Source: an uncultured Gammaproteobacteria bacterium (GTDB lineage Bacteria > Patescibacteriota > Microgenomatia > Daviesbacterales > UBA10151). From it: DNA of 64,000 bases. Both the position numbers and the translations under genes were made by a program. The first letter of the stretch is position 1. Each line of letters starts with the position of its first letter. Location: assembly GCA_964422835.1 (NCBI GenBank), contig CAYRCR010000001.1, forward strand, positions 22,030 through 86,029, written 5' to 3'. Under the pieces are notes generated by a model that did not search any database, had not been told where the DNA came from, and worked only from the letters and a program-made list of their open reading frames with translations. This document shows, piece by piece, positions 4,739-64,000 of this stretch.

Positions 4739-6640
4739 TTAAAGCGGCAAATCGAGGTTTTTGTCAGAACTCAAGTCAAATTGGGCCTTGGTAGAACCGT
4801 TTATTTTAACAGTGTATTTAAAATCCTTAGCTCCGGGTTGTTTTTGGATTAGCAAAGGATAATTTTTACCCGCCACATTATCAGGCAGAGTGTATTCAAC
4901 TTGCAAAGTTCTTGAATTTTGGGGTCTAACCTGCACAAAAGCCTCGAAATATGTTTTATTTAATCCCTCGTCAACTTGTGTTGTTACAGGATCATCCGAA
5001 CCCTTTGAAGACACAAGTTTTGCTCCTCTTGGAACATAAATCCTGACATAATCGCGTAAAATCCCATTAAGCCAGGTATTAAAAGGCTGAGGATTTTTAT
5101 ATTCAATAGTAACTTTGTTCGTGGTAGCCCCATCATTTCCCGCCTTAATATCCAGTGTTACTTTTTCTTCAACATAAAGATTGGACTTGCCTCCGGCAAA
5201 ATTAGAATCATTAATATGCAGATAATCCCCATCAAAAGGTTTAATTTGTCCTGTCCAATTTAGTTTAGAAAGTGCAGCCTGGGAAGATGAGTCATTTAAA
5301 TAAACCATAATATGTTTGTCGTTAGCCAATTTGACCATATTATTTATTACAATAGGAAGTTTATCAGGCCCCGCTGATAACATTTTGGCTAAAATTTGCT
5401 GCATCAGCGTCCCAAGTATAGCTTTTCTATCCTCTTCCCCTTTAGAAGCTACTTCCGCGTAGTGCTCAAGCTCATAAATGACATTCGGGCAATTACAACG
5501 CCCATCGCGCTCCGCGCTGTATTTGGTACCAAAAATATCAACCGGGCCGGTAATTTCAATCAATTCCTCCACCACTTGTGTATCAATATAAATAATCCCG
5601 TCAAACGGTATGCCTTCTCCTAAAAGATCATACATGCTTTCAAATTGCTTAGCCGCAGTTGGAACATCAGGAGAAATATTAGAATCACGCATGGACCAGG
5701 CCGAGCGGGGTTTTCCGGATACCTCGGGCAAATATTTAACAATCGGAGCAGGCGGAGAAAGTGGGCAAATTTTCTTTTCGCAGACTTTAAGAAGCTTTTC
5801 GTCCAATCTGTAAATATCATCTGATGTTGTAGTAGACAGATGACCCTTATCAAGAGTGAGAAATGCAAAAGCTGTAATAAATCCTCCAGTCGGCCTTATC
5901 TCTTTATCGTTTTGGAAGAGAATCAAATAATTTTTCGGGGAATCCTGTCCCAAAGTTTTAGGAGCAATCAATAAGGCATCTTTACCCTCGGATATTGCAA
6001 CATCTGCACCAATAATGAAATTCCGGGCAGTTTCTACTAAATCCTTTACCCTTTTTCCTTTGAATTCTTCAGGGTATTTCCCTGCGTCAATACTTTTTAC
6101 TTCCTCACCGGCTCTTTTCAGGTCATCTTCAATAGAATCAACATGTGGCAGGGTTTTATCAAGAATTTTAACAACTTGGGCAATTTTATCTTGCCCCGGC
6201 GTCGGGCTGCCGGTAAACCCAAGTTCGTCCTTATATGGCTCAAGTATTAAGACAATTTTCTGGCCGGCGCTAAGCTCATACGAGGCTGCAGACACAAAAT
6301 GGGAAACATCTGATATATACCCGCCTATAAAGGGAGCCACCCTTAACCAGGTTAAAAACTTGAGTGATAGGTTCAACTTATCAACTGCGGATTTTGTTTT
6401 ATTTATCCCTGTTTTAACAACATCAAGATTCTCCTGCTTTGCGCCTTCTGAGATTATTTTGGCCCCGGCTATAGTCTCTCTGACAAAATAAGCGCTGGCA
6501 ATACCAGGTAACCCAATCGTTAAGGTCAGGAGCAGAAAAATTACTAACAGACGTCTTTTTGCTTTTCCGTTACCTTTACTTTTAAATTTCCGCAATGTAA
6601 GGTTGTTATTCAATTTTTTATTTAAATTCATCATTGCCAT
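4739..6640 (-). CDS. DUF4012 domain-containing membrane-anchored protein.
   Basis: 633 aa with an N-terminal basic stretch plus TM ('RRLLVIFLLLTLTIGLPGIASA') and the conserved 'EIRPTGGFI' motif that I associate with DUF4012. This family characteristically neighbours polyprenyl-phosphate sugar-phosphate transferases. Confidence 0.6.
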   Translation of the reverse strand: MAMMNLNKKLNNNLTLRKFKSKGNGKAKRRLLVIFLLLTLTIGLPGIASAYFVRETIAGAKIISEGAKQENLDVVKTGINKTKSAVDKLNLSLKFLTWLRVAPFIGGYISDVSHFVSAASYELSAGQKIVLILEPYKDELGFTGSPTPGQDKIAQVVKILDKTLPHVDSIEDDLKRAGEEVKSIDAGKYPEEFKGKRVKDLVETARNFIIGADVAISEGKDALLIAPKTLGQDSPKNYLILFQNDKEIRPTGGFITAFAFLTLDKGHLSTTTSDDIYRLDEKLLKVCEKKICPLSPPAPIVKYLPEVSGKPRSAWSMRDSNISPDVPTAAKQFESMYDLLGEGIPFDGIIYIDTQVVEELIEITGPVDIFGTKYSAERDGRCNCPNVIYELEHYAEVASKGEEDRKAILGTLMQQILAKMLSAGPDKLPIVINNMVKLANDKHIMVYLNDSSSQAALSKLNWTGQIKPFDGDYLHINDSNFAGGKSNLYVEEKVTLDIKAGNDGATTNKVTIEYKNPQPFNTWLNGILRDYVRIYVPRGAKLVSSKGSDDPVTTQVDEGLNKTYFEAFVQVRPQNSRTLQVEYTLPDNVAGKNYPLLIQKQPGAKDFKYTVKINGSTKAQFDLSSDKNLDLPL

Positions 6641-6643
6641 AAT

Positions 6644-7288
6644 TTATACAGCCCCCCTGCCAAATATTACAGCCGGGACAGTCCTTAAAAGAAGCCAAAG
6701 GTCATAAATAATTGATTTTTTTTCAACATACAAAGCATCCATTTCCACCCTTTTATCAAAATTAATTGCCGATCTTCCCGATGTCTGCCAAACACCGGTC
6801 AAGCCTGGTTTTGATGTAAGTATTATTTTAACAAATTTTCCGGTACCGGGGAAGTTAACCTGCTGCTCTTCCAGCTCATACGAGTAATAGGCACGGGGCC
6901 CAACTAAACTCATTTCGCCCTTTAAAATATTAAAAAGTTGCGGAAGCTCATCAATCGAGGTTTTACGGATAAACTTTCCGATACGGGTTATACGCGGATC
7001 TTCGTCAATGGCAAGTTTATAGCTATTTTGCTGATATTTTTTTAAGAGGTTTTTGTATCTTGGGTCACGGTGCAAAAGATCATGAGCCCCTACTACCATA
7101 GAACGGAATTTATACATGCGGAAAAGTTTGCCTCCCTCCCCAACTCTCATTGGGGTATCAGCCAAAATTGATCCTTTTGAAACAATTTTTATTAAAATGG
7201 CAATCAATAAAAATAATGGTGAGAGCAGTGTAATTCCTATGGTTGAACCTATTAAATCCAGAATCCGTTTTAAAAATTTATATATCAC
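6644..7288 (-). CDS. Bacterial sugar transferase (WbaP/CpsE/WcaJ family, short form): the priming polyprenyl-phosphate hexose-1-phosphate transferase.
   Basis: 214 aa with 'KFRSM...[21 protein letters not shown]' and '[12 protein letters not shown]', the hallmark motifs of the polyisoprenyl-phosphate glycosylphosphotransferase C-terminal domain. Confidence 0.85.
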
Positions 7289-8358
7289 AAATTTAAGATT
7301 AAGTTTTGGAATTCATTGTAAAATCTTTCCTTTGAAAATCTTTTGGCATTCTCTTTGCATCTTTTTTGATTATATCCTTTTTTGTAAAGCTTCTCCAAGG
7401 CATCACATAAACTCTCAACAGTTTGTTCATAAAAAAAATAGCCGGTACATCCATCAATCACGGTTTCTAAAGCCCCCCCTTTACCAAATGCAATGACAGG
7501 CTTACCTAAAGCCTGTGCCTCCAAAGACACTATCCCAAAATCCTCTTCTCCTGTAACCAGAACAGCTTTACACCCAAGTAGAAGGTGGGCCAACATCTCA
7601 TCATCAACTGTCCCCAGCAGTTCAACCTTTTGTTTTCCAAGCGTGGCTAACCGCTCCAATTCCGGTCCCTTACCCACCACTTTTACAGGAATATTGAGTT
7701 TCTCTGATGCCAATATTGCCAGGTCTGCCCTTTTATATTTATTCAAACGTGAAATTACCAAAAGGTAATCTCCCTCGTACCCTCCAAAATAACCAAATTT
7801 ATCCATATCAACAAATGGGTAAATAATCATTGACTCTGCATTATAAATTTGTTTAATTCTTTCCTGGGCATTCTTTGATCCCGCAATCCAATAATCTACC
7901 CGGCCGGAAGAAATCCTATCATATTGTTTCAGGAATTTTAAATATGGTTGAAGTAAAAAAGGGGTTTTTTCATCAGAAAAATTCCACAGGAACCTTGGCG
8001 GAGTATGGCAATAACAAATATGTTTTGTTTCAGGTCTGGTGATTATGCTTTTGGCAAAGCGTGTGGTCTGGGAAAGGACAATGTCAAATGCGGAAAAATC
8101 AAACTGCTCAAAAGCTAAAGGATAGAGCGGCAAAAATGCCCTGTAAAGGCTTCTCCAGCCGGGAATTTTTTGCATAAAAGAGGTAATAATTATTTTGGAA
8201 TTAAAGTATTTTTTTATCAAGGGATTTGTAAAATCCATTACAGATGTGTAAATTGGTGCTCTGGGAAATACCTCCGATAGGGAGAGTAAAAGTTTCTCGG
8301 CTCCACCCCATTGAACTAAATCATCATGTACAAGTGCGATCTTTAAATTTTTACTCAT
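7285..8358 (-). CDS. Glycosyltransferase family 4 (GT-B, retaining).
   Basis: 'KIALVHDDLVQWGGAEKLL' N-terminus and C-terminal 'GEEDFGIVSLEAQALGKPVIA' (the EX7E-like GT4 motif). The ORF track gives the start as 8400; I favour the internal Met of 'MSKNLKIALV' at 8358. That leaves a 40-bp divergent gap to rsmH. Confidence 0.8.
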   Translation of the reverse strand: MSKNLKIALVHDDLVQWGGAEKLLLSLSEVFPRAPIYTSVMDFTNPLIKKYFNSKIIITSFMQKIPGWRSLYRAFLPLYPLAFEQFDFSAFDIVLSQTTRFAKSIITRPETKHICYCHTPPRFLWNFSDEKTPFLLQPYLKFLKQYDRISSGRVDYWIAGSKNAQERIKQIYNAESMIIYPFVDMDKFGYFGGYEGDYLLVISRLNKYKRADLAILASEKLNIPVKVVGKGPELERLATLGKQKVELLGTVDDEMLAHLLLGCKAVLVTGEEDFGIVSLEAQALGKPVIAFGKGGALETVIDGCTGYFFYEQTVESLCDALEKLYKKGYNQKRCKENAKRFSKERFYNEFQNLILNL

Positions 8359-8398
8359 AAACTTGTCCATTGTACCAAAAACATGAGAAAATAAGACC

Positions 8399-9310
8399 AT
8401 GCGTGATTATCATACGCCGGTTATGCTGGCAGAAGTTCTGAGATACATACATATTAAAAAGGGGTTTTGGTACATTGATTGCAATTTAGGTGGAGGCGGA
8501 CATACGGAAGGGGTTTTAGAAAAAGGCGGTAAAGTTCTAGGCATTGACCTTGATCCGGAAGCAATTATGGAAGTTGCTCAAAAATACCATCTAAAAACAA
8601 ACATGTTTGAAGGGCGCCTTCAGGCGACATCAGAAAATCTAATCTTATGCCAATCAAATTTTTCCCATTTAAAACTAGTCGTTGAAAAATATAATATTGG
8701 TAGGGTATCAGGAGTATTATTCGATTTGGGTGTCTCTTCACATCAACTAGAGACAACCGAAAGGGGGTTTAGTTTTAATGTTGATGCCCCTTTAGATATG
8801 CGGATGGATCAAAATTACGGGGTAAGCGCGGCCGATCTTATTAATGGCCTGCACGAAAAGGAATTGGCCCAGCTCTTTTGGAAATTCGGCGAAGAACGCT
8901 TTGCCAAAGGAATAGCCAAAAAAATAATCAGAGCCAGGCAGAATAAACCCGTCACAACTACCAACCAGCTAGCCCAAATAATACTCTCCTCAAGACCAAG
9001 GAGCAAAGCCGACAGAACCCACCCAGCCACGCGCGTTTTCCAAGCACTGCGGATTGCGGTCAATGATGAGTTAAATAGTTTAACTGAATCTCTACCCCAA
9101 ACGTTAGACATTTTGGAGCCTGAAGGAAGATTGATTGTAATAAGTTTTCATTCACTGGAAGACAGAATTGTTAAGGACTTTATGAAAAGTGAGGAACAAA
9201 AGTGTTCGATCAAAATAATTACTCAAAAACCAATTGAACCCACAGAAAAAGAGATAGAAGAAAACCCCCGCAGCCGCAGCGGCAAACTGCGCGTAGCAGA
9301 AAAAATCTAG
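8399..9310 (+). CDS. rsmH: 16S rRNA (cytosine1402-N4)-methyltransferase RsmH (MraW).
   Basis: 'DYHTPVMLAEVL...DCNLGGGGHTEGVL' and 'FDLGVSSHQLE...RGFSF' are canonical RsmH motifs; 303 aa. Confidence 0.9.
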   Translation: MRDYHTPVMLAEVLRYIHIKKGFWYIDCNLGGGGHTEGVLEKGGKVLGIDLDPEAIMEVAQKYHLKTNMFEGRLQATSENLILCQSNFSHLKLVVEKYNIGRVSGVLFDLGVSSHQLETTERGFSFNVDAPLDMRMDQNYGVSAADLINGLHEKELAQLFWKFGEERFAKGIAKKIIRARQNKPVTTTNQLAQIILSSRPRSKADRTHPATRVFQALRIAVNDELNSLTESLPQTLDILEPEGRLIVISFHSLEDRIVKDFMKSEEQKCSIKIITQKPIEPTEKEIEENPRSRSGKLRVAEKI

Positions 9311-10401
9311 CTTGATCTGTAAACTCCCAAAGTTTGCTCTGCTAATTTTTGCCAGCTAAATTGCTTATATCTTATTTTACCTTTTTTAATAAGATCATTT
9401 CTTAAATTTTTATCATCCAAGGCTTGGGAGATTTTTTCTGCTATATCATTCTCATTTTTTGGATCAAAGTATAATAGCGCATTGCCTCCAACTTCCGGGA
9501 GCGACCCGGCATTTGATGAGGCTATCGGGCAACCCGCTGCCATGGCCTCCAAAACCGGCAAACCAAAGCCTTCCTCAAGTGACGGCATTACAAAAATCTT
9601 GGCATTTTTATAAAGACCCGCCAATTCATTATCGCTTACGAAACCAGTAAATATCACACCTCCGATGTGTGATACTGCTTTAATATCTTCCCAAAATTTA
9701 TGGGGAGGGCCTGATAAAACTAAGGATAAATCCTGATATTTTTCTTTAAGTTTTTTAAAAACTTTAATTAATATTAAAAGATTTTTATGGGGCTGGGCAT
9801 TGCCAACATAAAAAAGATAGGGTTTTTTGACAGTAATTTTGCCGTTGGCTTTTTGGGCCAGCCTAAGAAAATTATCTTCTACAGCTTCATAAGTTATAGT
9901 AATTTTGCCTTCCGGCACATTCCATTCATTAACCAGTTGTTCTTTCACAAAATTAGAAGGAGTTATAATTTTGGAAGATCCGGATACGGCGTGAGAAAAA
10001 GTTTTTCTATATCCAATTTTTTTTATAGTATGGATAATTGGCCCATGTGTTGAGGCATCTCTTGTTTGGAAATGCTGATGGATTAAATCATGGATTGTCA
10101 CTACAAATTTACCTTTATAAAAAATTGGCACATTAAAATGGGGAAAGTGGATTAAGTCGGGCTTTAAACTATTTATAATTTTCGGGAGTTTTATTTGCTC
10201 ACTGAATGTATACCATCTAAAATCTGCCAAAATTTTATGGAAATTTTCAGCGCGATACACTAGTTTATCGAAGTCATCCTGTAAATGGAGAACATAGTAT
10301 TCGTTTTGGTGGTCTGCCCTTTGTAAACCTTCAATTAAATTTCTAACGTAGCGCCCAATACCTGACTCTGACCATAACCTTGCATCAATTATTATTCTCA
10401 T
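9307..10401 (-). CDS. Glycosyltransferase family 4.
   Basis: 'EEGFGLPVLEAMAAGCPIASSNAGSLPEVGG' GT4 motif; 364 aa. Its stop codon overlaps the rsmH stop on the opposite strand. Confidence 0.85.
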   Translation of the reverse strand: MRIIIDARLWSESGIGRYVRNLIEGLQRADHQNEYYVLHLQDDFDKLVYRAENFHKILADFRWYTFSEQIKLPKIINSLKPDLIHFPHFNVPIFYKGKFVVTIHDLIHQHFQTRDASTHGPIIHTIKKIGYRKTFSHAVSGSSKIITPSNFVKEQLVNEWNVPEGKITITYEAVEDNFLRLAQKANGKITVKKPYLFYVGNAQPHKNLLILIKVFKKLKEKYQDLSLVLSGPPHKFWEDIKAVSHIGGVIFTGFVSDNELAGLYKNAKIFVMPSLEEGFGLPVLEAMAAGCPIASSNAGSLPEVGGNALLYFDPKNENDIAEKISQALDDKNLRNDLIKKGKIRYKQFSWQKLAEQTLGVYRSS

Positions 10402-11626
10402 GGGCCTTTTTCTCCTTACAAACTTCCTGATAAATCCTGTCTAGTTTACCCGCAATTACCGGGTATGAGTATTTTTCCTCAACTAATTTTCTGGCATTGG
10501 TTGTAATTTTCTCATATAATTTCTTGTCACTTAAAATCTGTATTGTCAGATTTGCCAACTCTTCGGGAGTTTTACCGAATAAAACGGATTCCCCGTTTTT
10601 AGCATCAATTCCTTCAATACCAATATGAGTTGTTACTACTGGCAAACAGGCTGCCATCGCTCCCAAAATCTTCAGCCTTGTTCCGCCGGGACCATAGAGA
10701 GGCGCAACCAGTACCCCACTTTGGCGGTAGGCCTTCTTGACCCCTTCAATATCCTCAATGGACAAATTAACCATTTTAACTTTATCAGATTCCAACCCGA
10801 CTACCTTATCAGCATTTTGGCCGGCAATAATTAATCTAGCATCGGGTATTTTTTGTAAAATTTTAGGGAATACTTCCCTTGCTAAAACTTTAGCCGCTTC
10901 CAGATTCTGCATCCAGTCATAATTACCCATGAACAAAATGTCATTCGAATAATGCATTGGGGTTTTTTCCATTAAATCTTCTCCGACGCCATTGGGCACT
11001 ATTGAAACCTGAATCTTTGAAGCCGATGCGGCCATTTTTTGGGCATCCGATTCAGATACCGCAATTGCCCTGGCTGATTTTTTCCAGAAATGCGTTTCCC
11101 AGAATTTGATTTTTAACACATCAATCCAAAGAAGAGGTTTCATAAATAAAAATTTGTAGTTTTCAACATAATGCTGATAAACCTGATACTCAATTGTCTG
11201 ATCAACCAGGACAACAGGCACATGTGTCTCGGGGATATGGGGATATACATAAAATGTTTCCGCATGGATAATGTCAAACTTCTCACGGGATAAAATTTCT
11301 GCCACGCTTTGCTTTTCCAATTTGGAAAAGTTTCTAATTACAACAAAAGGATATGGGCTAAATCCGGTACGCAGGATGTTTGCAATCGTCCATGGTTTTT
11401 CAGCCCTTTTAAAAACTTTCACATTTTCACAATATTTTTCAAGTTCAGAAATATATTGTCTTTCACTGTCGTGTTTTATCAATGAATAGAGAGTAATTTG
11501 ATGTTTTTTGGAAAGCTGTTTGATTAAATTGTATGACCTGATTTGTCCACCGGAGGAAGGGGGATATGGAAGGTAGGGAGTCAACATTAGTATCTTCATA
11601 CCTTTATTTGGGACGTGATACATCAA
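10385..11626 (-). CDS. Glycosyltransferase family 4.
   Basis: 'MKILMLTPYLPYPPSSGGQIRSYNL' N-terminus and 'LYGPGGTRLKILGAMAACLPVVTT'. The true start may be the internal Met at about 11599. Confidence 0.8.
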   Translation of the reverse strand: MMYHVPNKGMKILMLTPYLPYPPSSGGQIRSYNLIKQLSKKHQITLYSLIKHDSERQYISELEKYCENVKVFKRAEKPWTIANILRTGFSPYPFVVIRNFSKLEKQSVAEILSREKFDIIHAETFYVYPHIPETHVPVVLVDQTIEYQVYQHYVENYKFLFMKPLLWIDVLKIKFWETHFWKKSARAIAVSESDAQKMAASASKIQVSIVPNGVGEDLMEKTPMHYSNDILFMGNYDWMQNLEAAKVLAREVFPKILQKIPDARLIIAGQNADKVVGLESDKVKMVNLSIEDIEGVKKAYRQSGVLVAPLYGPGGTRLKILGAMAACLPVVTTHIGIEGIDAKNGESVLFGKTPEELANLTIQILSDKKLYEKITTNARKLVEEKYSYPVIAGKLDRIYQEVCKEKKAHENNN

Positions 11627-55101: not shown

Positions 55102-56127
55102 TTAAATTTTTGACAGGAGATTTTTTATAAGCTTTACAACAAAACCCCTCCCTTGAGGTCTAGACACAAAACCCCAGACTATTGCATCAGTTGTAGTCAT
55201 TGCAACAATAGGGTGCCATAAAAAGGCAGGGTCTCTATGTTTGATTGTACGTAACACTCCTCTGATTAATTCAGGAATAAACAAGTTTGCATATGCAACC
55301 CAAAAGAAAATCTTTAAGAGATCCTTTCTCTTTTTTGGATCAAACCACAAATAATATTTATGGTTCAAATTTGGAAGATAATCCCTTTCCAAATTTCTTA
55401 GTCTTTTTATAATCAACAATTTTAGATTTTCAGCATGATAATGCCTTATTTTTGCTAGGGGGACATAGGCAAAGAGTTGATGTCCAGCCCTCGCAACTAT
55501 CTCTATACTCTCTAAATCTATAAATGACTTATCTTTCCCAACTACTGTTTTTAAAAGTTCCTTCCGGCGGTATAAAATCCTCCCCATTGCAGGTATTTTC
55601 CCAGGGGTAAAATTGCAAAGGAAATATTTTTCCCTTTTTTCAATGACCGTACTTGCTATTGAAGGCGAAAAAAAAGCGTAGAGAGGATCCTGCATTAAGG
55701 GATGGTGTGCAATAAACCGCAAAAGAGAACTCTTAACTCGAGGTTTTGTCTCTATAGAAAACTCTTTAGTAAAACTTCCTATAATTTTTTTATCTTCCAA
55801 AAGAGGGTTTGCAAGTAATTCAAAAAAATTATTACAGCAGACTTCCATATCAGCATCAAACCAGTAAACTAAATCATTTTTTGCTGCATGCATTCCAATC
55901 CCTTTATTAAGTTCAATATCATGCGTTTTAACATTTAGAATCCGCGCTCCAAATTTTCGGGCTAACTTTTCACTATTATCATTTGATCCATCGTTTACCA
56001 CGATATATTCAATTTTATTTCTAGGATATGTTTGACTTTTTAAAGAATTAAAGAGTCTTTTTAAATTGTCCTCTTCATTAAAAACCGGAATAATTGCGGA
56101 AATACTAGGTAGCACTTTTTTAAGCAT
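55102..56127 (-). CDS. Glycosyltransferase family 2.
   Basis: 'ISAIIPVFNEEDNLKRLFNSL...IEYIVVNDGSNDNS...YWFDADMEV'; 341 aa. Confidence 0.8.
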   Translation of the reverse strand: MLKKVLPSISAIIPVFNEEDNLKRLFNSLKSQTYPRNKIEYIVVNDGSNDNSEKLARKFGARILNVKTHDIELNKGIGMHAAKNDLVYWFDADMEVCCNNFFELLANPLLEDKKIIGSFTKEFSIETKPRVKSSLLRFIAHHPLMQDPLYAFFSPSIASTVIEKREKYFLCNFTPGKIPAMGRILYRRKELLKTVVGKDKSFIDLESIEIVARAGHQLFAYVPLAKIRHYHAENLKLLIIKRLRNLERDYLPNLNHKYYLWFDPKKRKDLLKIFFWVAYANLFIPELIRGVLRTIKHRDPAFLWHPIVAMTTTDAIVWGFVSRPQGRGFVVKLIKNLLSKI

Positions 56128-56160: not shown

Positions 56161-57612
56161 ATGAAAGTTCATTTTATTATCCCTTCTAACACAGAAAAAG
56201 GCAAGCGAGAAGTTTTAGATAAAATATTTGGATGCCACTATGGTTATTTTCCACAACACAATATTTTTACACTAGGTCTTACCGCAGTAATAAAAAAAAT
56301 GGGTTATGAAGTTGAGATGTCAGATTGTGCAATTGAAAAAATAACTTTAAACGATGCTCTGGAAAGAGGAGGGGATGTTTTTATATTTTATTCAGTTTTC
56401 TTAAGTAGGGAAATTGATCTTTGGGCTGCAGACCAAATCAAAAAAAAGCTTGGTAAAAAATGGATGATCTTTTTAGGTAATGATCCTGTTTTCTTTTCGG
56501 ATAAATATCTGATTTCGCAAAATCATATTTTAATCCGTGGTGAACCTGAAGAAACAATTGTTGATTTATTAAAAGAATTAGAAAAAAATAAACCTGTTTT
56601 TAAAAAAGTAAAGGGAATCAGTTGGGTAAGCAGAGGGAAAGTTATTCACAATACTCCAAGAAAATATATCGAAGATCTTGATAAGTTACCTCTTCCCGAC
56701 CGAATGATTCTTAAAAAACCATTGGAGTACTCAAATGCCCGTTTTTCTAAATTTCCCTCTACAACCATGTATACGTCCAGGGGCTGTGCATACAACTGTC
56801 TATTCTGCTTCCCAAACTCCTTTAGTTTTGCCAGAGAGTTGGAATGGAAAAATGTCCATAAGGTTAAACCTCCAGTAAGAGTTAGATCCTCAAGAAGTGT
56901 CATTAAAGAATTTGAGCAAATACATAAACAGGGTTTCCGCTCTGTTTCAATAGTTGATGATCAGTTTCTTTGGGATAGAAGAAGAACAGAAGAAATCTTT
57001 AAAGGAGTCAAAAAATTAAACATGGAAATTTCGATTCTGGCCCGTTGTGATAGGATAACTGACTATCCTCTAGTTAAAATGATGTTTGACGCAGGAGTAA
57101 GACATATTGCTTTTGGAGTAGAATCTTTTAACCAATCAATACTTAACTACATTAGAAAGGATTTAAAGGTAGAAACTATTGCCAAAGCAATAAAATGGTG
57201 CAAAAAAGCAGGTATAAAACCGGAAATTAATATAATTTTGGGAAGCTGCCCGTTGGAAACAAAAGAAACAATTGCCAATACAATAAACGAAGTTGAAAAA
57301 TTAAATGTTGATATAATTCATCTAAACATTATCGCCCCTTTCCCTGGTACGGATTATGCCAAACTTGCTAAGGAAAAAGGATGGATGACAGTAGATGAAT
57401 ATATACCGATTGACCCTGCTGCCCAAAGTTTAATCTCATATCCACATTTAACTGATAAGGATTTAGTCAAAGCAGTAAAGGGATTTATTTTTAAACATTA
57501 CTTTTCGCCTAAATATATCCTTAGAAATATCTCCAAAGTTAAATCACCAAACGAACTTTGGAACAAGATAAAAGCAGGTGTCTATGAATTTAAACTTCTT
57601 TTAATAAAATGA
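56161..57612 (+). CDS. Cobalamin (B12)-binding domain radical SAM enzyme.
   Basis: N-terminal Rossmann-like B12-binding region ('VFIFYSVFLSREIDLW...MIFLGNDPVF'), followed by the radical-SAM cluster motif 'YTSRGCAYNCLFCF' (CxxxCxxC). 483 aa. Confidence 0.75.
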   Translation: MKVHFIIPSNTEKGKREVLDKIFGCHYGYFPQHNIFTLGLTAVIKKMGYEVEMSDCAIEKITLNDALERGGDVFIFYSVFLSREIDLWAADQIKKKLGKKWMIFLGNDPVFFSDKYLISQNHILIRGEPEETIVDLLKELEKNKPVFKKVKGISWVSRGKVIHNTPRKYIEDLDKLPLPDRMILKKPLEYSNARFSKFPSTTMYTSRGCAYNCLFCFPNSFSFARELEWKNVHKVKPPVRVRSSRSVIKEFEQIHKQGFRSVSIVDDQFLWDRRRTEEIFKGVKKLNMEISILARCDRITDYPLVKMMFDAGVRHIAFGVESFNQSILNYIRKDLKVETIAKAIKWCKKAGIKPEINIILGSCPLETKETIANTINEVEKLNVDIIHLNIIAPFPGTDYAKLAKEKGWMTVDEYIPIDPAAQSLISYPHLTDKDLVKAVKGFIFKHYFSPKYILRNISKVKSPNELWNKIKAGVYEFKLLLIK

Positions 57613-58622
57613 GTATATTCCCTTCAGCTACTATCATAATTCCTACCTTAAACCGCAAATATGTTTTAGAAGAAGCTCTTTTGTCATTAAATAAAGTTGA
57701 TTACCCAAGAGATCTACTTAAAGTAGTAGTAGTTAACGACGGTTCATCGGATGGAACAAAAGAACTTCTTAAGAGAATTAAAAACAGATTAAACTATGAA
57801 TTCAGGTCTTACAATGAAAAGAGAAAAGGGATTTCTCACGCTAAAAATACAGCAATCAAAAAGTCCAAGGGAGAAGTAATTATTTCAACAGATGATGATT
57901 GTTTATTTGAAAAAACATGGCTTAAAAAATTAATTAAGCCATTAGAGAATGATTCTGTAGGCTCTGTTGGAGGACCTGATCGAGCTATTAAAGATGAACA
58001 TGTGCTGGCTAAAAGTGTTGATTTCGCTTTTTCTAGTTTTATTGGTTCAGGAGGAATTCATGGGAGATTTTTAAAAGTAAAACTTGGTAAGTTCTACCCT
58101 CCTGGATGTAATATGGCATTTAAGCGTAAACTTGTTAAGCAAATAGGTTTTTTTGATGAAACCTTGGCACCTGGAGAAGACACGGATTATAATCATAGAA
58201 TAGAAAAAGCTGGATATAAATTAATTTATGTCCCCACAGCCTTTGTCTGGCATAGACCGAGAAACAGCATCAGAAGGTTTATCCCTTATATCTTTAAAAG
58301 AGGAAAGGCAAGGGTGGAAATTATCCGACGCTATCCAGAATATAAAGAATACATATATTATCTTCCAGCAATTATTGTGGTAGTTGGTTTTCTACTTCTT
58401 TTATTATCATTTGTTTCACCAATTTTCCTTATAACCTTTGCAATCCTAATATTATTCTACACTACACTACTTGTTAGCGCTGGGCTTTCTGCCTACAGAA
58501 CCTACCACAATCTGGCATACTTTTTTATAGTTCCACTACTAATCTTCCTTCAGCATACATTTCATGGAGTAGGATTTATAAAAGGGGTCTGGGACTTTTA
58601 CTTCAAGTCCAAACTAGACTGA
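57609..58622 (+). CDS. Glycosyltransferase family 2 with C-terminal TM helices.
   Basis: 'ATIIIPTLNRKYVLEEALLSL...LKVVVVNDGSSDGT...ISTDDDCLFE'. Two C-terminal hydrophobic helices. Its start overlaps the upstream radical SAM stop (ATGA). Confidence 0.8.
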   Translation: MSIFPSATIIIPTLNRKYVLEEALLSLNKVDYPRDLLKVVVVNDGSSDGTKELLKRIKNRLNYEFRSYNEKRKGISHAKNTAIKKSKGEVIISTDDDCLFEKTWLKKLIKPLENDSVGSVGGPDRAIKDEHVLAKSVDFAFSSFIGSGGIHGRFLKVKLGKFYPPGCNMAFKRKLVKQIGFFDETLAPGEDTDYNHRIEKAGYKLIYVPTAFVWHRPRNSIRRFIPYIFKRGKARVEIIRRYPEYKEYIYYLPAIIVVVGFLLLLLSFVSPIFLITFAILILFYTTLLVSAGLSAYRTYHNLAYFFIVPLLIFLQHTFHGVGFIKGVWDFYFKSKLD

Positions 58623-58641: not shown

Positions 58642-60183
58642 TTATGTCCCTAATAAACCATCTGATAGCCCTAATTGTTTAAGAAAATACGAGAGACTCA
58701 ACTTAAAAAATCTTTTTGGTGAATGGAATAAAATAGAAACAGCGAGTTTAACTTTTGCAAAGGGGATAGTCTGGTTTACTCTTATCGCTTTTTTGAAAAG
58801 TTTTTTTACCTCTGTTCTTGAGAGGAAAGGCGTTTCAATTATTGGTTCACCAGTACTTAAGCCTTTTACAAAATTACCGGTTTCTTTATTTGTCAACCAA
58901 CCATTGTTAACCGCAATTTGATAAGCTTCAGTCCCGCGATGTGGAACCAAAACACCGAAACCACAATCATTTACTCCAAGTTTTTTTAACTCACGGGCAT
59001 ATTTTATTGTTTTCTCCACCTGATTTTTCTTTTCCCCAGGCATACCAATCAAAAAAAAGGCATCTACCGGGAGCCTATACTTCCGGCACCAATTGACAAC
59101 TTGTTTTACTTTTTTTAAATTCAGCTTCTTATGCATCAAGTTATCTACCACCCATTGGCTACCGGATTCAGGAGCAACAATTGTTCTTGTGCACCCTGAT
59201 TGCTTCATCTTCCTAACCAACTCCTCATCAACTGTATCAGCCCGTATTCCATTGGGAGTACTCCATTCAATTTCCCATCCTTTCTCGATTATTTTATCGC
59301 ATATCTTTTTTGCCCTTTCTTTATTTAGGGTAAAATTATCATCTTCAATATCGAAATGTTGAATTTTATATTTTTTGATCAAATAATCCATTTCAGCAAT
59401 AACATTATCCACACTTCTTGGCCTAAAAATCCTTCCCATAACTAAATGGCCTGCACAAAAAGCACAGGTAAATGGACAGCCTCTGCTGGTAAAAATAGTC
59501 GCCCATCTTCTGCCAAATGTAGAAATACTGCGGGAAGACCTTACATTTCTGGCAGCTTCAAAATATTTATCCATGGGAAACAGCTCCCACGCAACACGAT
59601 ATCTATCCAAATCAGTTAAAGGTAATCTTGTTGTATTTACAATTGTTTTTCCTTTTTTTTTAAAAATTAGCCCATGAATTTTACTGTATTTATTACTCTT
59701 TCTCTTAATAGCTTTAGTCAACTCCAACATAGTTAATTCTCCTTCCCCTAAAACTGCAAAATCGATATTGTTATCATCCAATATTGTTTCTGCGTACGCA
59801 GTGGGATAAGCTCCGCCAACAACTACTTTTATATCTGGGTTAACTTCTTTAACAACCATTGCTATTTCATGACCAGCTTTAGATTGTGCAGTAAAAGGCA
59901 TCGTTATACCTACAATGTCTGGAGTAATTCTTTTAATTCTTTTTTTTATTTCAGTTTTATTCAATCCTACATAGCGATTTGATCCCTCGTCCACAAATTC
60001 CTCATGGTCATTTCCTTCTGCCAAAATATCAAAAATTTTGACATTTATATTGTTATCCAATAGATGTCCTGCAATATACCCTAAACCTAAAGGTTGGAAG
60101 GCGTTCAACGGGTAATTTATATTAGCTGGAGTAAATTGACCGGGATTAATTAAAAGAACTTTCATTGGTATATTATATATCAC
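58642..60183 (-). CDS. Cobalamin (B12)-binding domain radical SAM enzyme. Second copy, distinct sequence.
   Basis: 'VLLINPGQF...LGLGYIAGHL...DIVGITMPFTAQ' B12-binding/Rossmann region and 'FTSRGCPFTCAFCAGH' CxxxCxxC motif; 513 aa. Confidence 0.75.
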   Translation of the reverse strand: MIYNIPMKVLLINPGQFTPANINYPLNAFQPLGLGYIAGHLLDNNINVKIFDILAEGNDHEEFVDEGSNRYVGLNKTEIKKRIKRITPDIVGITMPFTAQSKAGHEIAMVVKEVNPDIKVVVGGAYPTAYAETILDDNNIDFAVLGEGELTMLELTKAIKRKSNKYSKIHGLIFKKKGKTIVNTTRLPLTDLDRYRVAWELFPMDKYFEAARNVRSSRSISTFGRRWATIFTSRGCPFTCAFCAGHLVMGRIFRPRSVDNVIAEMDYLIKKYKIQHFDIEDDNFTLNKERAKKICDKIIEKGWEIEWSTPNGIRADTVDEELVRKMKQSGCTRTIVAPESGSQWVVDNLMHKKLNLKKVKQVVNWCRKYRLPVDAFFLIGMPGEKKNQVEKTIKYARELKKLGVNDCGFGVLVPHRGTEAYQIAVNNGWLTNKETGNFVKGLSTGEPIIETPFLSRTEVKKLFKKAIRVNQTIPFAKVKLAVSILFHSPKRFFKLSLSYFLKQLGLSDGLLGT

Positions 60184-60184: not shown

Positions 60185-62203
60185 TCACTTAAAAATTAAT
60201 GCCTTGGCAGAAGTATAGTTTAGAGGACAAGCATTTGTATTTTCAAACACAAAGCTTGCATACCTTGCCTCTTTTCCGGCAATAAAATACTCTATTTCAT
60301 TCGCACTTATATTTTCTTTTTGTTTGATTTGTCGAAATGGAATTGGATCTTTTTCTCGAGTCCAGCTTGATCCATCTTGTGAGATTTTAACAAAAGCTGC
60401 CTTTGGTGTTAAACATCCCGACAAAGGATTAAAAAATAAATATAGCCTGCTGATCGGAACAATTTTACCAAAATCCAGCATAATTTGGTTATCCGATGTC
60501 TTATCTATCAAAGGATTTGGTAATTCCACTTCGTTTTTTTTCGACATTTCTCTGGTGTGCTCAATGTCATTTTTCCAAACTTTTAGTATTGGGACACCGT
60601 CAACTTTTAGTTCATAAACCGGATATAAAAAGTTCTCCACATACTCCCAAGCATAGTTAAAGTCGCGAGTTGAGTCATTAAAAGTTAAATCCATAAGATA
60701 CTCTCCTTCACGCACTATCCCGCTCAAATTCCCAGATTTGAAGTCAATATCTTTCCTTAAAAAAATCACCGGCGCGTTAGCGGCCGTACCCTGAATTAAG
60801 GATAATCTACTATTATTTTCTACATTCTCGTTTACCCATTTTATCCCCTGAAAGTAAGCATTGCCAAAACTATTTCCCCAAGAAGGGAAATTTTTTTCAT
60901 AAGCACCAGGTAAACCTCCTATTAATGAATTAAAATAAACATTTTCATAAGGATGAAGTTTTATCAAAATCCATAAAGGCCAAATAAAAATGATCATTAA
61001 TACAATTTTAACAACTAATCCCTTATTAATTTGTGTAATTTGCCATGCACCAAGACCCGAAAGCAAGGCCATTGCCGGCAAAAATTCCATTATTTGTCTG
61101 ACACCACCATAAATAACGGTCCCGGGTAGCGTAACCCTTAAAAGGGGCACCACAAGCCACAAAAGCCATAATAATGTCAGTTGTTTTTTCTCCCCTTTTA
61201 AGGCAAAAAGGGACAATAAGCCGAAAAAGAATAAAATAAGTATTAAGGGTGGGGTAGTAAATATAATCCAAAGAACCGGAAACATATTAAAATTATGAAA
61301 ATAAAAATTATCGGGCTGGTAATGGAAATTTGTACCAATTTCCCGGTAATATCCAAAAATACTTTGTAAATTCCAAACATTCTGCCAAAGATAAGGCCAT
61401 GAACCTAAAAATATTAATCCTACAATAACCATCCCCCCCAAAAACCCCAATATCATTTTTTTCGGAAAAATTTTATGTAAGTTTAGGGGTAATAAAAGCT
61501 TCTTCCTGTATCTCAACAAAAGATAGGGAATAATTATCGCCGGTAGGAATAATATATTAAATTTGGTTCCTAAAGCTAAGGAAAAAAATACCGATGAAAT
61601 CAAAAGCCAGCGGATACTCCCTTTTTGCAAAGCCTTCCAGAAAGCCCAGATGCATCCTGTAAAAAAAGCTGCTTCCGGAGGATCCTTAATATTAAAGTGA
61701 GATTCGGACCAAAAAAGAGGATAGGTTACAAGTGCCAAAAATGATACGAAGCTTGCAAAAACACCCATTGTCTCCAAGGCAAAAGAAACCACAACAAAAA
61801 CAAAGAGTGATGAAGCCAGAATATTAAACAGATGGTGCGCCTCAATATCTCCTAAAACCCCTAATTTTTGAAAGAAAATAAAATTTGACAGGGCTGCCAA
61901 TTCATCATTTAAAGGGGGATGCCCGCTATCATTCTTTAACATATATTCGCCGTTATATAGATCACTCTGATAAAAACTTCGCCTTGGAATGGCAATTTTG
62001 TTTGGATCACCATTAGTACCCTGTAGATCCACTTTAGGCAAATCATCATATGTTGTTTCTCCAGTTAAAAAATAGCGCAGGTAGGCCTGTCCTCTATAAA
62101 AATGCAAAGTTTCGTCCCAGGAAATTCCATAATGAGGAAGGGTAAAAAGTGCGGAGAAAAAAAAGACAGTTGCAAGTAATATTGGAATAAATTTCTTCAT
62201 CAA
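60185..62203 (-). CDS. GT39/ArnT-like membrane glycosyltransferase with an extracytoplasmic C-terminal domain. Paralog of the 37467..39467 gene.
   Basis: 'HYGISWDETLHFYRGQAYLRYFLTG...NDSGHPPLNDELAAL...GDIEAHHLF' and 'FNSLIGGLPGAYEKNFPSWGNSFGNAYFQ...VYELKVDGVPILKVWKNDIEHT'; 672 aa. Confidence 0.65.
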   Translation of the reverse strand: MMKKFIPILLATVFFFSALFTLPHYGISWDETLHFYRGQAYLRYFLTGETTYDDLPKVDLQGTNGDPNKIAIPRRSFYQSDLYNGEYMLKNDSGHPPLNDELAALSNFIFFQKLGVLGDIEAHHLFNILASSLFVFVVVSFALETMGVFASFVSFLALVTYPLFWSESHFNIKDPPEAAFFTGCIWAFWKALQKGSIRWLLISSVFFSLALGTKFNILFLPAIIIPYLLLRYRKKLLLPLNLHKIFPKKMILGFLGGMVIVGLIFLGSWPYLWQNVWNLQSIFGYYREIGTNFHYQPDNFYFHNFNMFPVLWIIFTTPPLILILFFFGLLSLFALKGEKKQLTLLWLLWLVVPLLRVTLPGTVIYGGVRQIMEFLPAMALLSGLGAWQITQINKGLVVKIVLMIIFIWPLWILIKLHPYENVYFNSLIGGLPGAYEKNFPSWGNSFGNAYFQGIKWVNENVENNSRLSLIQGTAANAPVIFLRKDIDFKSGNLSGIVREGEYLMDLTFNDSTRDFNYAWEYVENFLYPVYELKVDGVPILKVWKNDIEHTREMSKKNEVELPNPLIDKTSDNQIMLDFGKIVPISRLYLFFNPLSGCLTPKAAFVKISQDGSSWTREKDPIPFRQIKQKENISANEIEYFIAGKEARYASFVFENTNACPLNYTSAKALIFK

Positions 62204-63996
62204 TTCTCTACAAATTTCTTAATTAGCCCCCTATCGCTGATTTCATTAAAATCCAAATTCCGAAGACTTATGGATTGGATTTCTATCTTAACTGGCGCTC
62301 CTGGCACACTTATTTTAAGGTCTTGAACAACCGTTCCACCAGTGTCCAACGGTAATTCATATATATTTTCACGATCAAGATTACCTACGGTAATCTTTTT
62401 TAAATTCTTACCTTTATTAGTATTCCAGTTGATCTCAATATTTAAAAGAGGTGCAATATTTTTCAAGATTAAATTTAACTCCTCTTCATTGGCAATAAAA
62501 TCAAATGGTGAATCCAGAAAAGAAAAGGCATCTGCAAGATCAATATCATTGTAAGCAGACTCTACCACCTCTAATTCAGTTAGTGCAGGCGCATCATTTA
62601 CTAAGGTTTCAGTAATATCCATCCTGACATACCGTCCCTCAATCTCATCAAATGCATCTGTTACTATTTCTCCACTTTTCCTTTCTGGACCATGAACAAC
62701 TTTTTTTACATCCTCCCATTTATTTTTATCTTTAGAAACACTTATTACATATGATGTGGGTGTTAAGGTATTATTCCAGTTAGTCCAGATAAGTTTCCCT
62801 ACTCTTTTAATCCTGCCTAAATCAAGAGTAATTTGCTCTTTCTGGTGTTCATGCCAAAAAATTCTATGACCACGCCAACTGGTATTAATATTATTATCCA
62901 CTGCGTTTTCCGTTTCCTGATACTTCCACTGTGATAGACTGGATACTTTAACATTGCTGTAATATTCCTTTCTAGATAAAAGATAGGCAATAATTTCCTC
63001 TTTTTCTCCTACGGTTTTTGTGCTGAACTTCTTGCCACTTGGAGAATAGGGATATGTGATATTTGATATATCAGGCATAATTTTAGCTTTTAAATTTAGT
63101 AATAATGGAGATACCGAGGAGATTTTAATGTTATCCCTTAAAATAGATATAAGAGATGGCGATTCATGTTTTAATGATAACGCTTGAGATTCTGAACCCC
63201 TTGTAAGCGAGTTCCTAACTTCATTAGTTGTGTCTTCCAAACCATTTTCACCAAAATAAAAACTGTGGATATTATTAATGCCAATTTGTTTAGTTGAAAT
63301 TTTATAAAGCAATTCATTAAAATTTTCAGTCAAGGCAATATCATAACGGTCAACTCCATAGTAGATTGCAAGAGCTGTGGATTCAGGCATAGACCCAACA
63401 GAAAAGAAATCTATAAATTGTTGTTGATAATATCTTTTATCAATTACATCAAAAAAGAAAATGTCACCCTTTTGAACATTGGGCACATAATTTTTCAAAT
63501 TCTTATAAAAGGCCTCAGTTGGGCGGCTTATATTTTTTATAATTTTATTTTGATATATAACTCCCAAAAATAAATTAACTCCGATAAATAAAAATAACGG
63601 TGTAACCGCTAATAAATAGGTAAACTTCCCAAAATTATTACTTTTAACTACTTTTTCAAATATCGCAAATGTTATTCCACCTATAATAATACAATAACCA
63701 ATAAAACTATAAGATAAATACCTATGAGTTGTGGCAAAAATAGCATCTTGGTACTGAATAAAATAGCCTAAGAACTGTGATATAACTACGATAATACCTA
63801 AAATTAAGGCTATTGATAATTCTTTCATTTTTTTCCATAAAACTAAGGCTAAAAATCCAGCCAGCACAGGAATATACATCCCCAATGCTCCAGCGCTAAT
63901 ATCCAAACCTATTCTATACCAAAAAAAATTTTTCGTTATAAAATAACAATTTAAAAAGAAGATGCTAGTAAATACCGAAATACTTGTTATTTTCAA
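62200..63996 (-). CDS. Polytopic membrane protein with a C-terminal F5/8 type C (discoidin)-like domain. The ORF reaches the right edge of the window, so the real N-terminus may lie beyond it.
   Basis: The N-terminal approximately 150 aa are hydrophobic helices. 'NNINTSWRGHRIFWHEHQKEQITLDLGRIKRVGKLIWTNWNNTLTPTSYVISVSKDKNKWEDV' is a good discoidin-domain pattern. The first Met lies 4 nt from the window end. Confidence 0.5.
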   Translation of the reverse strand: MKITSISVFTSIFFLNCYFITKNFFWYRIGLDISAGALGMYIPVLAGFLALVLWKKMKELSIALILGIIVVISQFLGYFIQYQDAIFATTHRYLSYSFIGYCIIIGGITFAIFEKVVKSNNFGKFTYLLAVTPLFLFIGVNLFLGVIYQNKIIKNISRPTEAFYKNLKNYVPNVQKGDIFFFDVIDKRYYQQQFIDFFSVGSMPESTALAIYYGVDRYDIALTENFNELLYKISTKQIGINNIHSFYFGENGLEDTTNEVRNSLTRGSESQALSLKHESPSLISILRDNIKISSVSPLLLNLKAKIMPDISNITYPYSPSGKKFSTKTVGEKEEIIAYLLSRKEYYSNVKVSSLSQWKYQETENAVDNNINTSWRGHRIFWHEHQKEQITLDLGRIKRVGKLIWTNWNNTLTPTSYVISVSKDKNKWEDVKKVVHGPERKSGEIVTDAFDEIEGRYVRMDITETLVNDAPALTELEVVESAYNDIDLADAFSFLDSPFDFIANEEELNLILKNIAPLLNIEINWNTNKGKNLKKITVGNLDRENIYELPLDTGGTVVQDLKISVPGAPVKIEIQSISLRNLDFNEISDRGLIKKFVEN

Positions 63997-64000
63997 CCTT

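Follow-up and report, generated by a model that had tools for sequence, protein, structure and literature searches.

The 64,000-nucleotide stretch analyzed here in full (hereafter the window; contig CAYRCR010000001.1 of assembly GCA_964422835.1, positions 22,030 to 86,029) holds most of a cell-surface glycan assembly locus of about 66 kb from a member of Candidatus Daviesbacteria (Microgenomates; Patescibacteria, also known as the candidate phyla radiation, CPR). The gene set comprises 47 open reading frames (ORFs) of at least 150 aa; 50 were listed, of which three coincide with longer ORFs read from the other strand or in a different frame. According to Pfam, the left 4.7 kb is occupied by housekeeping genes encoding a class II aminoacyl-tRNA synthetase, RecO, and a P-loop protein, and from the DUF4012 gene at 4739 to the window edge nearly all genes are related to glycans (Table 1), most of them on the minus strand in a tight array whose stop and start codons overlap. 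Pfam assigns to this span six GT4 and five GT2 glycosyltransferases, three S-adenosylmethionine (SAM) methyltransferases besides the housekeeping rsmH, one acetyltransferase, and one Wzx flippase; together with a priming transferase and the Wzy_C-like protein described below, this is the accessory gene set listed earlier by a model that had only the letters and their translations (the sequence-only reading). The same reading had described essentially every gene as glycan-related, which largely stands from 4739 onward, with rsmH as an exception, and had counted about 20 membrane glycosyltransferases of the GT-C type, of which we find 19 in the window and 21 in the whole locus. The 19 polytopic candidates (462-1029 aa) occupy 57% of the 59-kb span.

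An exact look-up found identical sequence in long groundwater metagenome contigs (up to 275 kb), GCA_000997225.1, and GCA_001777495.1, and the homologues and related loci with a named source come from Candidatus Daviesbacteria, Woesebacteria, and other Patescibacteria. One contig (L045), 100% identical to the window over the 13.8 kb that they have in common, continues past the window edge with, in order, a 764-aa PMT/PMT_2 protein, two methyltransferases, and a 738-aa PMT_2 protein, followed by housekeeping genes encoding NifU and cysteine desulfurase; a second contig (L007) is likewise 100% identical over its overlap. The locus therefore extends from 4739 to approximately 70,977 in window-equivalent coordinates, with about 7 kb lying outside the window. 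This extension, the PpgS-like GT2/DUF2304 pair, the two radical-SAM genes, the DUF5667 gene, and rsmH are additions to the sequence-only reading. To the left of the window, identical contigs carry genes encoding a penicillin-binding transpeptidase (PBP_dimer and Transpeptidase domains, FtsI-like) and a Mur ligase; with these genes at its left and rsmH embedded in it, the glycan locus borders on the usual cluster of division and cell-wall genes and in part interrupts it. Gene calls on two contigs (L001 and L003) give the DUF4012 protein 518 + 72 aa or 515 aa in place of 633 aa and the priming transferase 168 aa in place of 214 aa, which reflects either strain-level frameshift variation or an assembly error. 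The G+C content falls from approximately 0.39-0.40 in the first 16 kb of the window to 0.32-0.35 at 28-64 kb, the part in which the lineage-specific PMT_2-type and g41-family expansions described below are located. Judged from a related complete Daviesbacteria chromosome of 820,589 bp, the host genome is probably smaller than 1 Mb.

Table 1. Features of the glycan locus in the window (positions in window coordinates; TM, transmembrane; TM1, first TM helix; E-values follow the name of the model)
Position	Strand	ORF	Feature	Evidence
4739-6640	-		DUF4012 protein, one N-terminal TM helix and large external domain; left locus boundary	PF13196, 1.2e-25
6644-7288	-		Small (PglC-size, 214 aa) polyprenyl-phosphate phosphoglycosyl transferase, priming enzyme	Pfam Bac_transf, 9e-57
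7285-8400	-		GT4	Glycos_transf_1, 9e-25
8399-9310	+		rsmH (MraW), 16S rRNA methyltransferase, housekeeping, outside the glycan pathway	PF01795, 4.7e-100
9307-10401, 10385-11626	-		Two GT4	Glycos_transf_1 / Glyco_trans_1_4
11604-13052	-		GT-C (PMT_2), motif DWHSWRQAD after TM1	PF13231, 8.5e-13
13049-14479	-	g12	O-antigen-ligase-family (Wzy_C-like) polytopic protein, 476 aa	Via homologues
14476-15078	-		Two-TM protein (one helix at each end), 200 aa, no family	No match in Pfam/NCBIfam
15075-15683	-		Hexapeptide-repeat acetyltransferase	PF00132, 3.9e-14
15742-16860	-		GT4	Pfam, 6.6e-37
16819-17553	+		SAM methyltransferase	Methyltransf_11, 3.3e-17
17684-18709	-		GT4	Pfam, 2.1e-22
18719-20248	-	g18	Probable GT-C, motif FVDEEDN after TM1	HHalign links
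20235-21635	-		GT-C (PMT_2), motif WLDEADN	PMT_2, 6.3e-18
21632-23442	-	g20, g21	GT2 (g20, 21632-22486) and GT4 (g21, 22483-23442)	Pfam
23424-24812	-	g22	Probable GT-C, short first loop, single conserved Glu (WPEM)	No Pfam match; HHalign
24809-25627	-	g23	SAM methyltransferase	Methyltransf_23, 9.3e-25
25624-28290	-	g24	AftD-like GT-C, 888 aa: N-terminal TM bundle, 467-aa external domain, C-terminal TM helix	HHalign 99.9% to g35, 708 columns
28437-29984	-	g25	GT-C (PMT_2), paralogue of g28	PMT_2, 2.3e-06, above gathering score; phmmer to g28
29974-30825	-	g26	GT2	Pfam, 2.2e-12
30822-32129	-		Wzx-type flippase (MOP superfamily)	Polysacc_synt PF01943, 2.1e-20
32156-33670	+	g28	GT-C (PMT_2)	PMT_2, 7.8e-11
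33679-35109	+		GT-C (PMT_2)	PMT_2, 1.9e-07
35098-35862	-		SAM methyltransferase	Methyltransf_11, 6e-21
35894-37474	+		GT-C (PMT_2)	PMT_2, 4.1e-10
37467-39467	-	g32	GT-C (PMT_2), 258-aa C-terminal domain, paralogue of g46	PMT_2, 4.9e-06; phmmer to g46
39505-41490	+	g33	AftD-like GT-C, 661 aa, C-terminal TM helix	HHalign 97.9% to g24, 96% to g35
41484-42971	-	g34	GT-C of g41 family, motif FSQDDFF	HHalign 99.8% to g40/g41
42949-43371	-		Conserved membrane protein beside g35, 140 aa, 3-4 TM helices	No Pfam/NCBIfam family
43343-46432	-	g35	AftD-like GT-C, 1029 aa: ~10 TM helices, ~560-aa beta-sandwich (CBM-like), C-terminal TM helix	AlphaFold, Foldseek
46497-46988	-		DUF5667 protein, one TM helix	Pfam, 2.7e-07
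46946-47692	+		PpgS/GacI-like GT2, candidate polyprenyl-phosphate-sugar (HexNAc?) synthase	NCBIfam NF058614 PpgS, 8.8e-55
47673-48044	+		DUF2304 small membrane protein, GacJ/Rv3632-type activator of adjacent GT2	PF10066, 2e-18
48025-49710	-		GT-C (PMT_2), motif FYSDDAVY	PMT_2, 3.4e-07
49637-51343, 51340-53439, 53426-55081	-		Three GT-C of g41 family; the second with C-terminal F5/8 type C domain	
55102-56127	-		GT2, widely conserved beside core	Pfam, 8.4e-20; present in 21 related loci
56161-57612	+		Radical-SAM enzyme, HpnJ-like	Radical_SAM, 8.1e-21; TIGR03471, 1.2e-62, below cutoff
57609-58622	+		GT2 with three C-terminal TM helices	Pfam, 2e-27
58642-60183	-		B12-binding radical-SAM enzyme, class B methyltransferase-like	B12-binding, 3.5e-16, and Radical_SAM; NF038361, 9.2e-65, below cutoff
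60185-62203	-	g46	GT-C (PMT_2), motif WDETLHF; as called on identical contig, gene begins one codon after TTG (671 aa)	PMT_2, 7.5e-11
62200-64000	-	g47	GT-C of g41 family, F5/8 type C domain, N-terminus cut by window edge	F5_F8_type_C, 2.5e-15; HHalign 100% to g39

Nine of the GT-C candidates exceed the gathering threshold of the Pfam PMT_2 model (PF13231; 26.1 bits), with scores of 27.3-65.9 bits. The other ten show no match on their membrane part in Pfam at E <= 10 or in NCBIfam at E <= 1 and should not be filed as PMT_2 members; they were assigned by structure prediction (AlphaFold models of g35 and g41 searched with Foldseek) and by profile-profile comparison (HHalign). Outside the two modelled representatives, Pfam provides the GT-C basis for nine proteins and HHalign links provide it for eight. 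By sequence comparison, the whole set falls into at least four families, i.e., PMT_2-type, AftD-like, g41, and g18/g22, and includes recent paralogue pairs (g25/g28, phmmer 5e-131; g32/g46, 9e-174; g40/g41, 3e-50). The Wzx flippase and the Wzy_C-like protein, taken as negative controls, reached at most 3% in HHalign against every GT-C family. Searches of PDB with sequence profiles of the g35, g41, g18, and g12 family alignments gave no meaningful match, and the link of g35 and g41 to solved GT-C structures came from fold comparison only, not from sequence profiles. Most homologues of the families lacking a model carry no source name or are titled 'hypothetical'.

The AlphaFold model of g41 (predicted local distance difference test, pLDDT, 91.7; predicted template modelling score, pTM, 0.92) matched GT-C enzymes in all of its top 19 Foldseek hits (STT3, PglB, AglB, ArnT, Pmt4, ALG9, DPY19), and transporters appeared in the list only with a probability of at most 0.25 and a template modelling score of about 0.12. 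The g41 family comprises g34, g39, g40, g41, and g47, whose mutual HHalign values are mostly 96-100% (88% for g34 and g47), and g40/g41 reach 96-97% with the PMT_2-positive g25/g28. Nearly all of the 102 homologues of this family are without a Pfam domain on the membrane part; among 44 aligned members, five match PMT_2 and three match PMT. Full-length g47, as found on L007 and L045, has 917 aa, of which the window holds the C-terminal 598, and its TM1 is followed by FYFYQDD.

Two proteins, g18 and g22, are probably GT-C enzymes, as judged from profile comparisons. The g18 family, represented by 473 clusters at 50% identity, is probably a sizeable unannotated GT-C family, and a Pfam scan of 50 of its members gave no match to any model. 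In HHalign, g18 reached 98.7% with the g22 family (415 columns), 91% with g33, 89.7% with the PMT_2-positive g25, and 68% with g32. A direct profile link between g18 and g41 gave 40% only, although the invariant D-E and H..P positions align, and was not relied on; the assignment of g18 therefore depends on its links to g22, g25, g33, and g32 and is graded as probable only. The corresponding values for g22 are 97% to g40/g41 and 91% to g25/g28. The final tally is thus 17 well-supported and two probable GT-C proteins in the window.

The sequence-only reading had ascribed to each of these proteins an acidic pair motif directly after TM1. Every motif that it quoted is present just after TM1, but a [DE][DE] or [DE]x[DE] pair occurs within 30 aa of TM1 in 12 of the 19 proteins, whereas 30-aa windows drawn at random from these proteins contain one in 21% of cases (binomial p = 9e-5); the remaining seven carry acidic residues in the same 30-aa stretch. 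The aspartate following TM1 is invariant in all three family alignments, as D36 in that of g35 (A1), D31 in that of g41 (A2), and D35 in that of g18 (A3). Only two other positions (E171, Y488) are invariant in the g41 family, and only one other (R88) in the g18 family. The tails preceding TM1 contain 43 lysines or arginines and 5 aspartates or glutamates in total, and the 30 residues following TM1 contain 38 and 67, respectively; by the positive-inside rule, this charge bias places the N-terminus in the cytoplasm and therefore the post-TM1 loop outside. The acidic loop is thus predicted to face outward, as the sequence-only reading had claimed and as it does in the solved GT-C structures matched by the models. 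Hydropathy-based helix counts are crude and were used for architecture, not for exact helix numbers, with topology taken from the charge bias; in the hydropathy prediction, the first loop measures 37-101 aa in 17 of the 19 proteins, the exceptions being g22 (23 aa) and g39, whose TM1 was missed by the prediction.

For the ten proteins without a Pfam or NCBIfam match on the membrane part, that lack of matches would also fit transporters, permeases, or unrelated membrane proteins carrying acidic motifs by chance. Against this speak the match of the g35 model to AftD, the invariance of the motif aspartate in three alignments, the enrichment of the motif after TM1, and the behavior of Wzx, a true transporter, which shows no HHalign link to the GT-C families. 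We consider the transporter explanation effectively excluded. Pfam searches and AlphaFold modelling, the checks that the sequence-only reading had proposed for separating GT-C enzymes from transporters, thus came out on the GT-C side, with nine PMT_2 matches and a GT-C fold in both modelled representatives. We are nearly certain that the locus is a glycan locus dominated by GT-C enzymes.

The closest structural relationship to a characterized enzyme concerns g35, which forms an AftD-like trio with g24 and g33. Its AlphaFold model (pLDDT 83.9, pTM 0.81) has as its best PDB match mycobacterial AftD (6w98; Foldseek E 1.3e-18, template modelling score 0.50), with AftA next. In the model, helices extend to about residue 440, a mixed or beta-rich domain at residues 470-988 matches the carbohydrate-binding modules (CBM) CBM16, CBM22, and CBM4, and a C-terminal helix occupies residues 990-1028. 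As modelled, g35 shares the AftD architecture of a GT-C module, a CBM-like beta-sandwich domain, and a C-terminal anchor. Sequence identity to AftD is approximately 11%, and g35 has 1029 aa compared with 1312 modelled residues in 6w98_A. There is no Pfam match in g35 itself, including PF11847 (GT-C_AftD / DUF3367); this model is found in 11 of 24 g35 homologues with 44-51% identity (best E 3.7e-11) and, in a precomputed table, in about one-fourth of the listed homologues. The only signal that the permissive Pfam and NCBIfam searches gave on the membrane parts of the ten proteins is a weak match, far below threshold, of residues 281-418 of g24 to the NCBIfam model of MmpA, involved in trehalose-lipid delivery (1.7e-08, 33.6 bits with a cutoff of 210), which is probably a membrane-helix similarity. 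Of the 10 related loci displayed in full, 8 have an ORF of 122-136 aa with 3-4 TM helices immediately behind the orthologue of g35; its counterpart in the window (Table 1) is possibly a donor flippase or an accessory subunit.

GT-C enzymes require lipid-phosphate sugar donors. The best NCBIfam match of the GT2 at 46946-47692 is polyprenyl-phospho-N-acetylgalactosaminyl synthase PpgS (185.6 bits, with an equivalog cutoff of 370); this protein is a relative that scores below the equivalog level. Its gene overlaps the DUF2304 gene, a pairing seen also in GacI/GacJ and PpgS/Rv3632. Both PpgS/Rv3632 of Mycobacterium tuberculosis (PMC3485146) and GacI/GacJ of Streptococcus pyogenes (bioRxiv 10.1101/180810) are documented as pairs that synthesize lipid-phosphate N-acetylhexosamine (HexNAc); in each, the GT2 is stimulated by its small membrane partner, and the lipid-phosphate sugar supplies a GT-C enzyme.

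The locus could accordingly be compared with the machinery for mycobacterial arabinogalactan and lipoarabinomannan (LAM), comprising EmbA/B/C, AftA-D, and PpgS-Rv3632-Rv3779, which it resembles in its many GT-C enzymes that would act outside with polyprenyl-phosphate donors, in the AftD-type GT-C with a CBM beta-sandwich and C-terminal anchor, and in the PpgS-like GT2 with DUF2304. One may go further and propose that the product is a lipomannan- or LAM-like lipoglycan or an arabinogalactan-like polymer attached to the wall. Its synthesis would proceed mostly outside the membrane, with the AftD-like and other GT-C enzymes polymerizing long chains from polyprenyl-phosphate pentofuranose or hexose donors and the Wzy_C-like protein acting as a polymerase. 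The three AftD-like paralogues, the ranking of AftD and then AftA as structural matches, the CBM-like soluble domain, and the fact that the closest characterized counterparts of the PpgS-like/DUF2304 pair are found in mycobacteria and streptococci are consistent with this proposal. However, no genes for decaprenyl-phospho-arabinose or -ribose synthesis (UbiA-type phosphoribosyltransferase, DprE1/2-like epimerase) are present among the 47 window ORFs, the low identity to AftD and the failure of g35 to match PF11847 speak against it, and Wzy polymerases are usually far less conserved than the Wzy_C-like protein of this locus. We regard such a product as improbable. Besides these points, the locus differs from the mycobacterial system in its shorter AftD-like protein and its CPR host. 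The mycobacterial genes are scattered over a 4.4-Mb genome, whereas here about 21 GT-C genes lie in one 66-kb locus of a genome probably below 1 Mb.

The Wzy_C-like protein, g12, has 10 predicted TM helices and a 124-aa external loop between TM7 and TM8. The sequence-only reading had assigned it to the Wzy_C family, and support for this comes only through its homologues: of 3266 in total, PF04932 is present in over half of the 120 best, several of which NCBI names 'O-antigen ligase family protein'. Identity among the best 120 homologues is 53-66%, with a mean column identity of 60%, and on account of this high conservation a ligase or O-oligosaccharyltransferase fits better than a polymerase; g12 is thus a candidate for the former, judged from family comparison. 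Ligases and O-oligosaccharyltransferases of the Wzy_C family include WaaL, PglL, and WsaB/WsfB. An iterative hidden Markov model search drew g12 into the g40 family, which we attribute to profile drift since its HHalign values are 0-3% against every GT-C family. Between the genes encoding g12 and the acetyltransferase lies that of the 200-aa two-TM protein, which is present on all strain contigs examined.

Among the remaining genes, the Wzx-type flippase scores 73.8 bits against a gathering cutoff of 28.2 and has 10 predicted TM helices. The two radical-SAM genes, of which only that at 58642-60183 encodes a Pfam B12-binding domain, flank the GT2 gene at 57609-58622; radical-SAM genes are also found beside AftD-like genes in L036-L038, which are titled Omnitrophota, and in L016. 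These enzymes may carry out an unusual sugar C-methylation or rearrangement.

Genomes scanned with the g35 alignment yielded 34 loci, which belong to Daviesbacteria, Woesebacteria, and other Patescibacteria, apart from a few in records titled Omnitrophota. In these loci a core recurs, wholly or in large part across Microgenomates, in the following order: GT2 (g42-like), methyltransferase, g40/g41-type GT-C, AftD-like g35, the protein of about 130 aa with 3-4 TM helices, g34 (in some loci), AftD-like g33, AftD-like g24, Wzx, GT2 (g26), methyltransferase (g23), g22-type GT-C, GT4 (g21), and GT2 (g20). The window keeps this order with insertions, g28-g32 between Wzx and g33 and g36-g39 between g35 and g40, and is an expanded version of a locus typical of the lineage, enlarged by extra PMT_2-type and g41-family genes, including recent paralogue pairs. 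The sharing of architecture among related genomes, which the sequence-only reading had proposed to check, is thus found in gene content and order. Its statement that so many GT-C genes are unusual for bacteria stands for number and density, but most related loci, including nearly all those of Daviesbacteria and Woesebacteria, contain 4-7 GT-C genes per 23 kb, so that high density is normal for the lineage, and the window takes to an extreme what its relatives also show. Among the GTDB records with close relatives of the locus (L012-L032 and L024), many are titled 'uncultured Gammaproteobacteria' and one 'Woesearchaeota archaeon'; these titles look like placeholders or mislabels.

The comparison also bears on whether the locus forms one pathway. 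It may instead be a glycosylation island of independent, co-located systems, namely a Wzx-dependent oligosaccharide and ligase system (about 4.7-18.7 kb), an AftD-like module, and many PMT_2 enzymes that, like actinobacterial Pmt and Gtr/YfhO-type enzymes, would each put single sugars directly on different surface proteins (pilins, S-layer proteins, sortase substrates) or on wall polymers. Such independence would agree with the separate recurrence of the left module (GT4s, Wzy_C-like protein, acetyltransferase) and the AftD-like core, most loci having the core without the left module and one (L042) having the left module with a distant AftD-like gene beside it. It would also agree with the character of the PMT_2 paralogues as lineage-specific insertions between core genes and with the arrangement of genes on both strands in several units with rsmH embedded. 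On the other hand, CBMs on several GT-C enzymes (F5/8 type C domains on two, a CBM-like domain on g35) point to glycan and not protein acceptors, and the 66 kb hold a single gene each for a priming transferase, a flippase, and a ligase-like protein. Co-expression is suggested by the close spacing of the genes, most of which run in the same direction, and by the overlap of their stop and start codons. We consider a set of independent systems the main alternative to a single pathway, possible but rather unlikely.

More probably, all parts serve a single pathway, leading from cytoplasmic assembly through flipping and elaboration by GT-C enzymes to transfer by a ligase, a scheme which we favor with modest confidence. 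The PglC-size phosphoglycosyl transferase would prime polyprenyl phosphate, and the chain would be extended by cytoplasmic GT4 and GT2 enzymes and modified by the acetyl- and methyltransferases, perhaps also by the radical-SAM enzymes, before export of the lipid-linked oligosaccharide by the Wzx-type flippase. The PpgS/GacI-like GT2 with DUF2304, and possibly other GT2s, would make polyprenyl-phosphate monosaccharide donors, from which the GT-C battery would lengthen and branch the glycan outside the membrane, by analogy with mycobacterial Emb/Aft enzymes and the three-component O-antigen modification systems. Several GT-C enzymes may grip the growing chain via their C-terminal F5/8 type C or CBM-like beta-sandwich modules, as a GT-C enzyme with a C-terminal CBM binds the acceptor glycan in a three-component system (PMC11127046). 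Finally, the O-antigen-ligase-family protein would move the finished glycan to its acceptor, which may be a surface or S-layer protein, a pilin, the wall, or a lipid. CPR envelopes have been described as more Gram-positive-like (PMC6744442); the host is expected to be monoderm, and the acceptor therefore cannot be lipid A-core. The sequence-only reading had outlined a similar route, for which the required gene set is present, the order of steps and the acceptor being what we infer.

Several observations count against this scheme or its parts. All of its steps are deduced from family membership, and 10 of the 19 GT-C candidates fail PMT_2 and all other GT-C models. Within that group, g18 and g22 are connected to GT-C enzymes through profile-profile links and architecture only, and g22 is without the D-D/E pair. 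Neither g12, even at E <= 10, nor any other window ORF matches Pfam Wzy_C (PF04932) directly, and the g12 profile found no solved structure by sequence. No nucleotide-sugar synthesis genes, chain-length regulator, or LytR-CpsA-Psr (LCP) ligase were found in the window. One MOP-type flippase would have to serve two kinds of lipid-linked substrate, with no GtrA-family flippase found by Pfam or NCBIfam among the ORFs or small ORFs of the window. Lastly, the genes are distributed over several transcription units on both strands with rsmH inside, and the locus could therefore serve more than one glycan.

Three further types of known systems are related to the locus. Like the three-component systems (GtrA/GtrB/Gtr*, GacI/GacJ/GacL, CsbB/GtcA/YfhO, and the pentofuranose systems; PMC11127046), it has a GT2 donor synthase that would feed GT-C enzymes, possibly with a CBM. 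In contrast, in those systems one GT-C adds one side-chain sugar, whereas about 20 are clustered here, and in place of a GtrA-family or dedicated MATE donor flippase, neither of which was identified, the locus has one Wzx-type MOP protein and the small family-less membrane protein. With Wzx-dependent O-antigen and S-layer loci it shares Bac_transf, GT4 and GT2 enzymes, acetyl- and methyltransferases, Wzx, and a Wzy_C-family protein; it differs in the missing chain-length regulator and direct Wzy_C match and in the dominance of GT-C enzymes, which are accessory at most in classical loci. The protein O-mannosyltransferases (GT39; Pfam PMT/PMT_2) and ArnT (GT83) are approached by the nine PMT_2 proteins and by the acidic motif in the first external loop, but identity is 11-13%, the MIR domain is absent here, and the C-terminal domains are small alpha/beta, F5/8 type C, or CBM-like.

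Every component class of the locus is already known. What is unusual is the presence of about 21 GT-C enzymes in 66 kb, the occurrence in a CPR bacterium of an AftD-like module alongside a Wzx/ligase pathway, and the position of 10 of the 19 GT-C proteins outside Pfam and NCBIfam. In the literature library searched, no paper linking CPR or Patescibacteria to GT-C enzymes, mannosyltransferases, or arabinofuranosyltransferases was found to describe such clusters, and protein families enriched in Microgenomates have been described as mostly hypothetical membrane proteins (PMC6744442). The exposure of sizeable GT-C families outside these databases matters for annotation.

Bacteria of the CPR are very abundant, mostly uncultured, and thought to live attached to hosts; to our knowledge, their surface chemistry is essentially unknown. 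The AftD-like core conserved in Microgenomates, the conserved ligase-like protein, and the donor-synthase pair provide concrete targets in this respect. We tentatively propose, as a possibility that we hold with considerable doubt, that Microgenomates build their main surface polymer mostly outside the membrane with a GT-C battery that includes at least two families without a Pfam model (g41 and g18/g22), in parallel with mycobacterial arabinogalactan and LAM, that the AftD-like core represents a lineage-wide envelope pathway, and that the strain-specific expansion to about 21 GT-C enzymes yields a highly branched, variable glycan for host attachment or phage evasion. About 7-8% of a genome estimated at 0.8-0.9 Mb, by the size of the related Daviesbacteria chromosome, is spent on this one glycan locus, and more than half of the locus consists of GT-C genes, which implies that an elaborate glycan built outside the cytoplasm is central to the biology of the organism.

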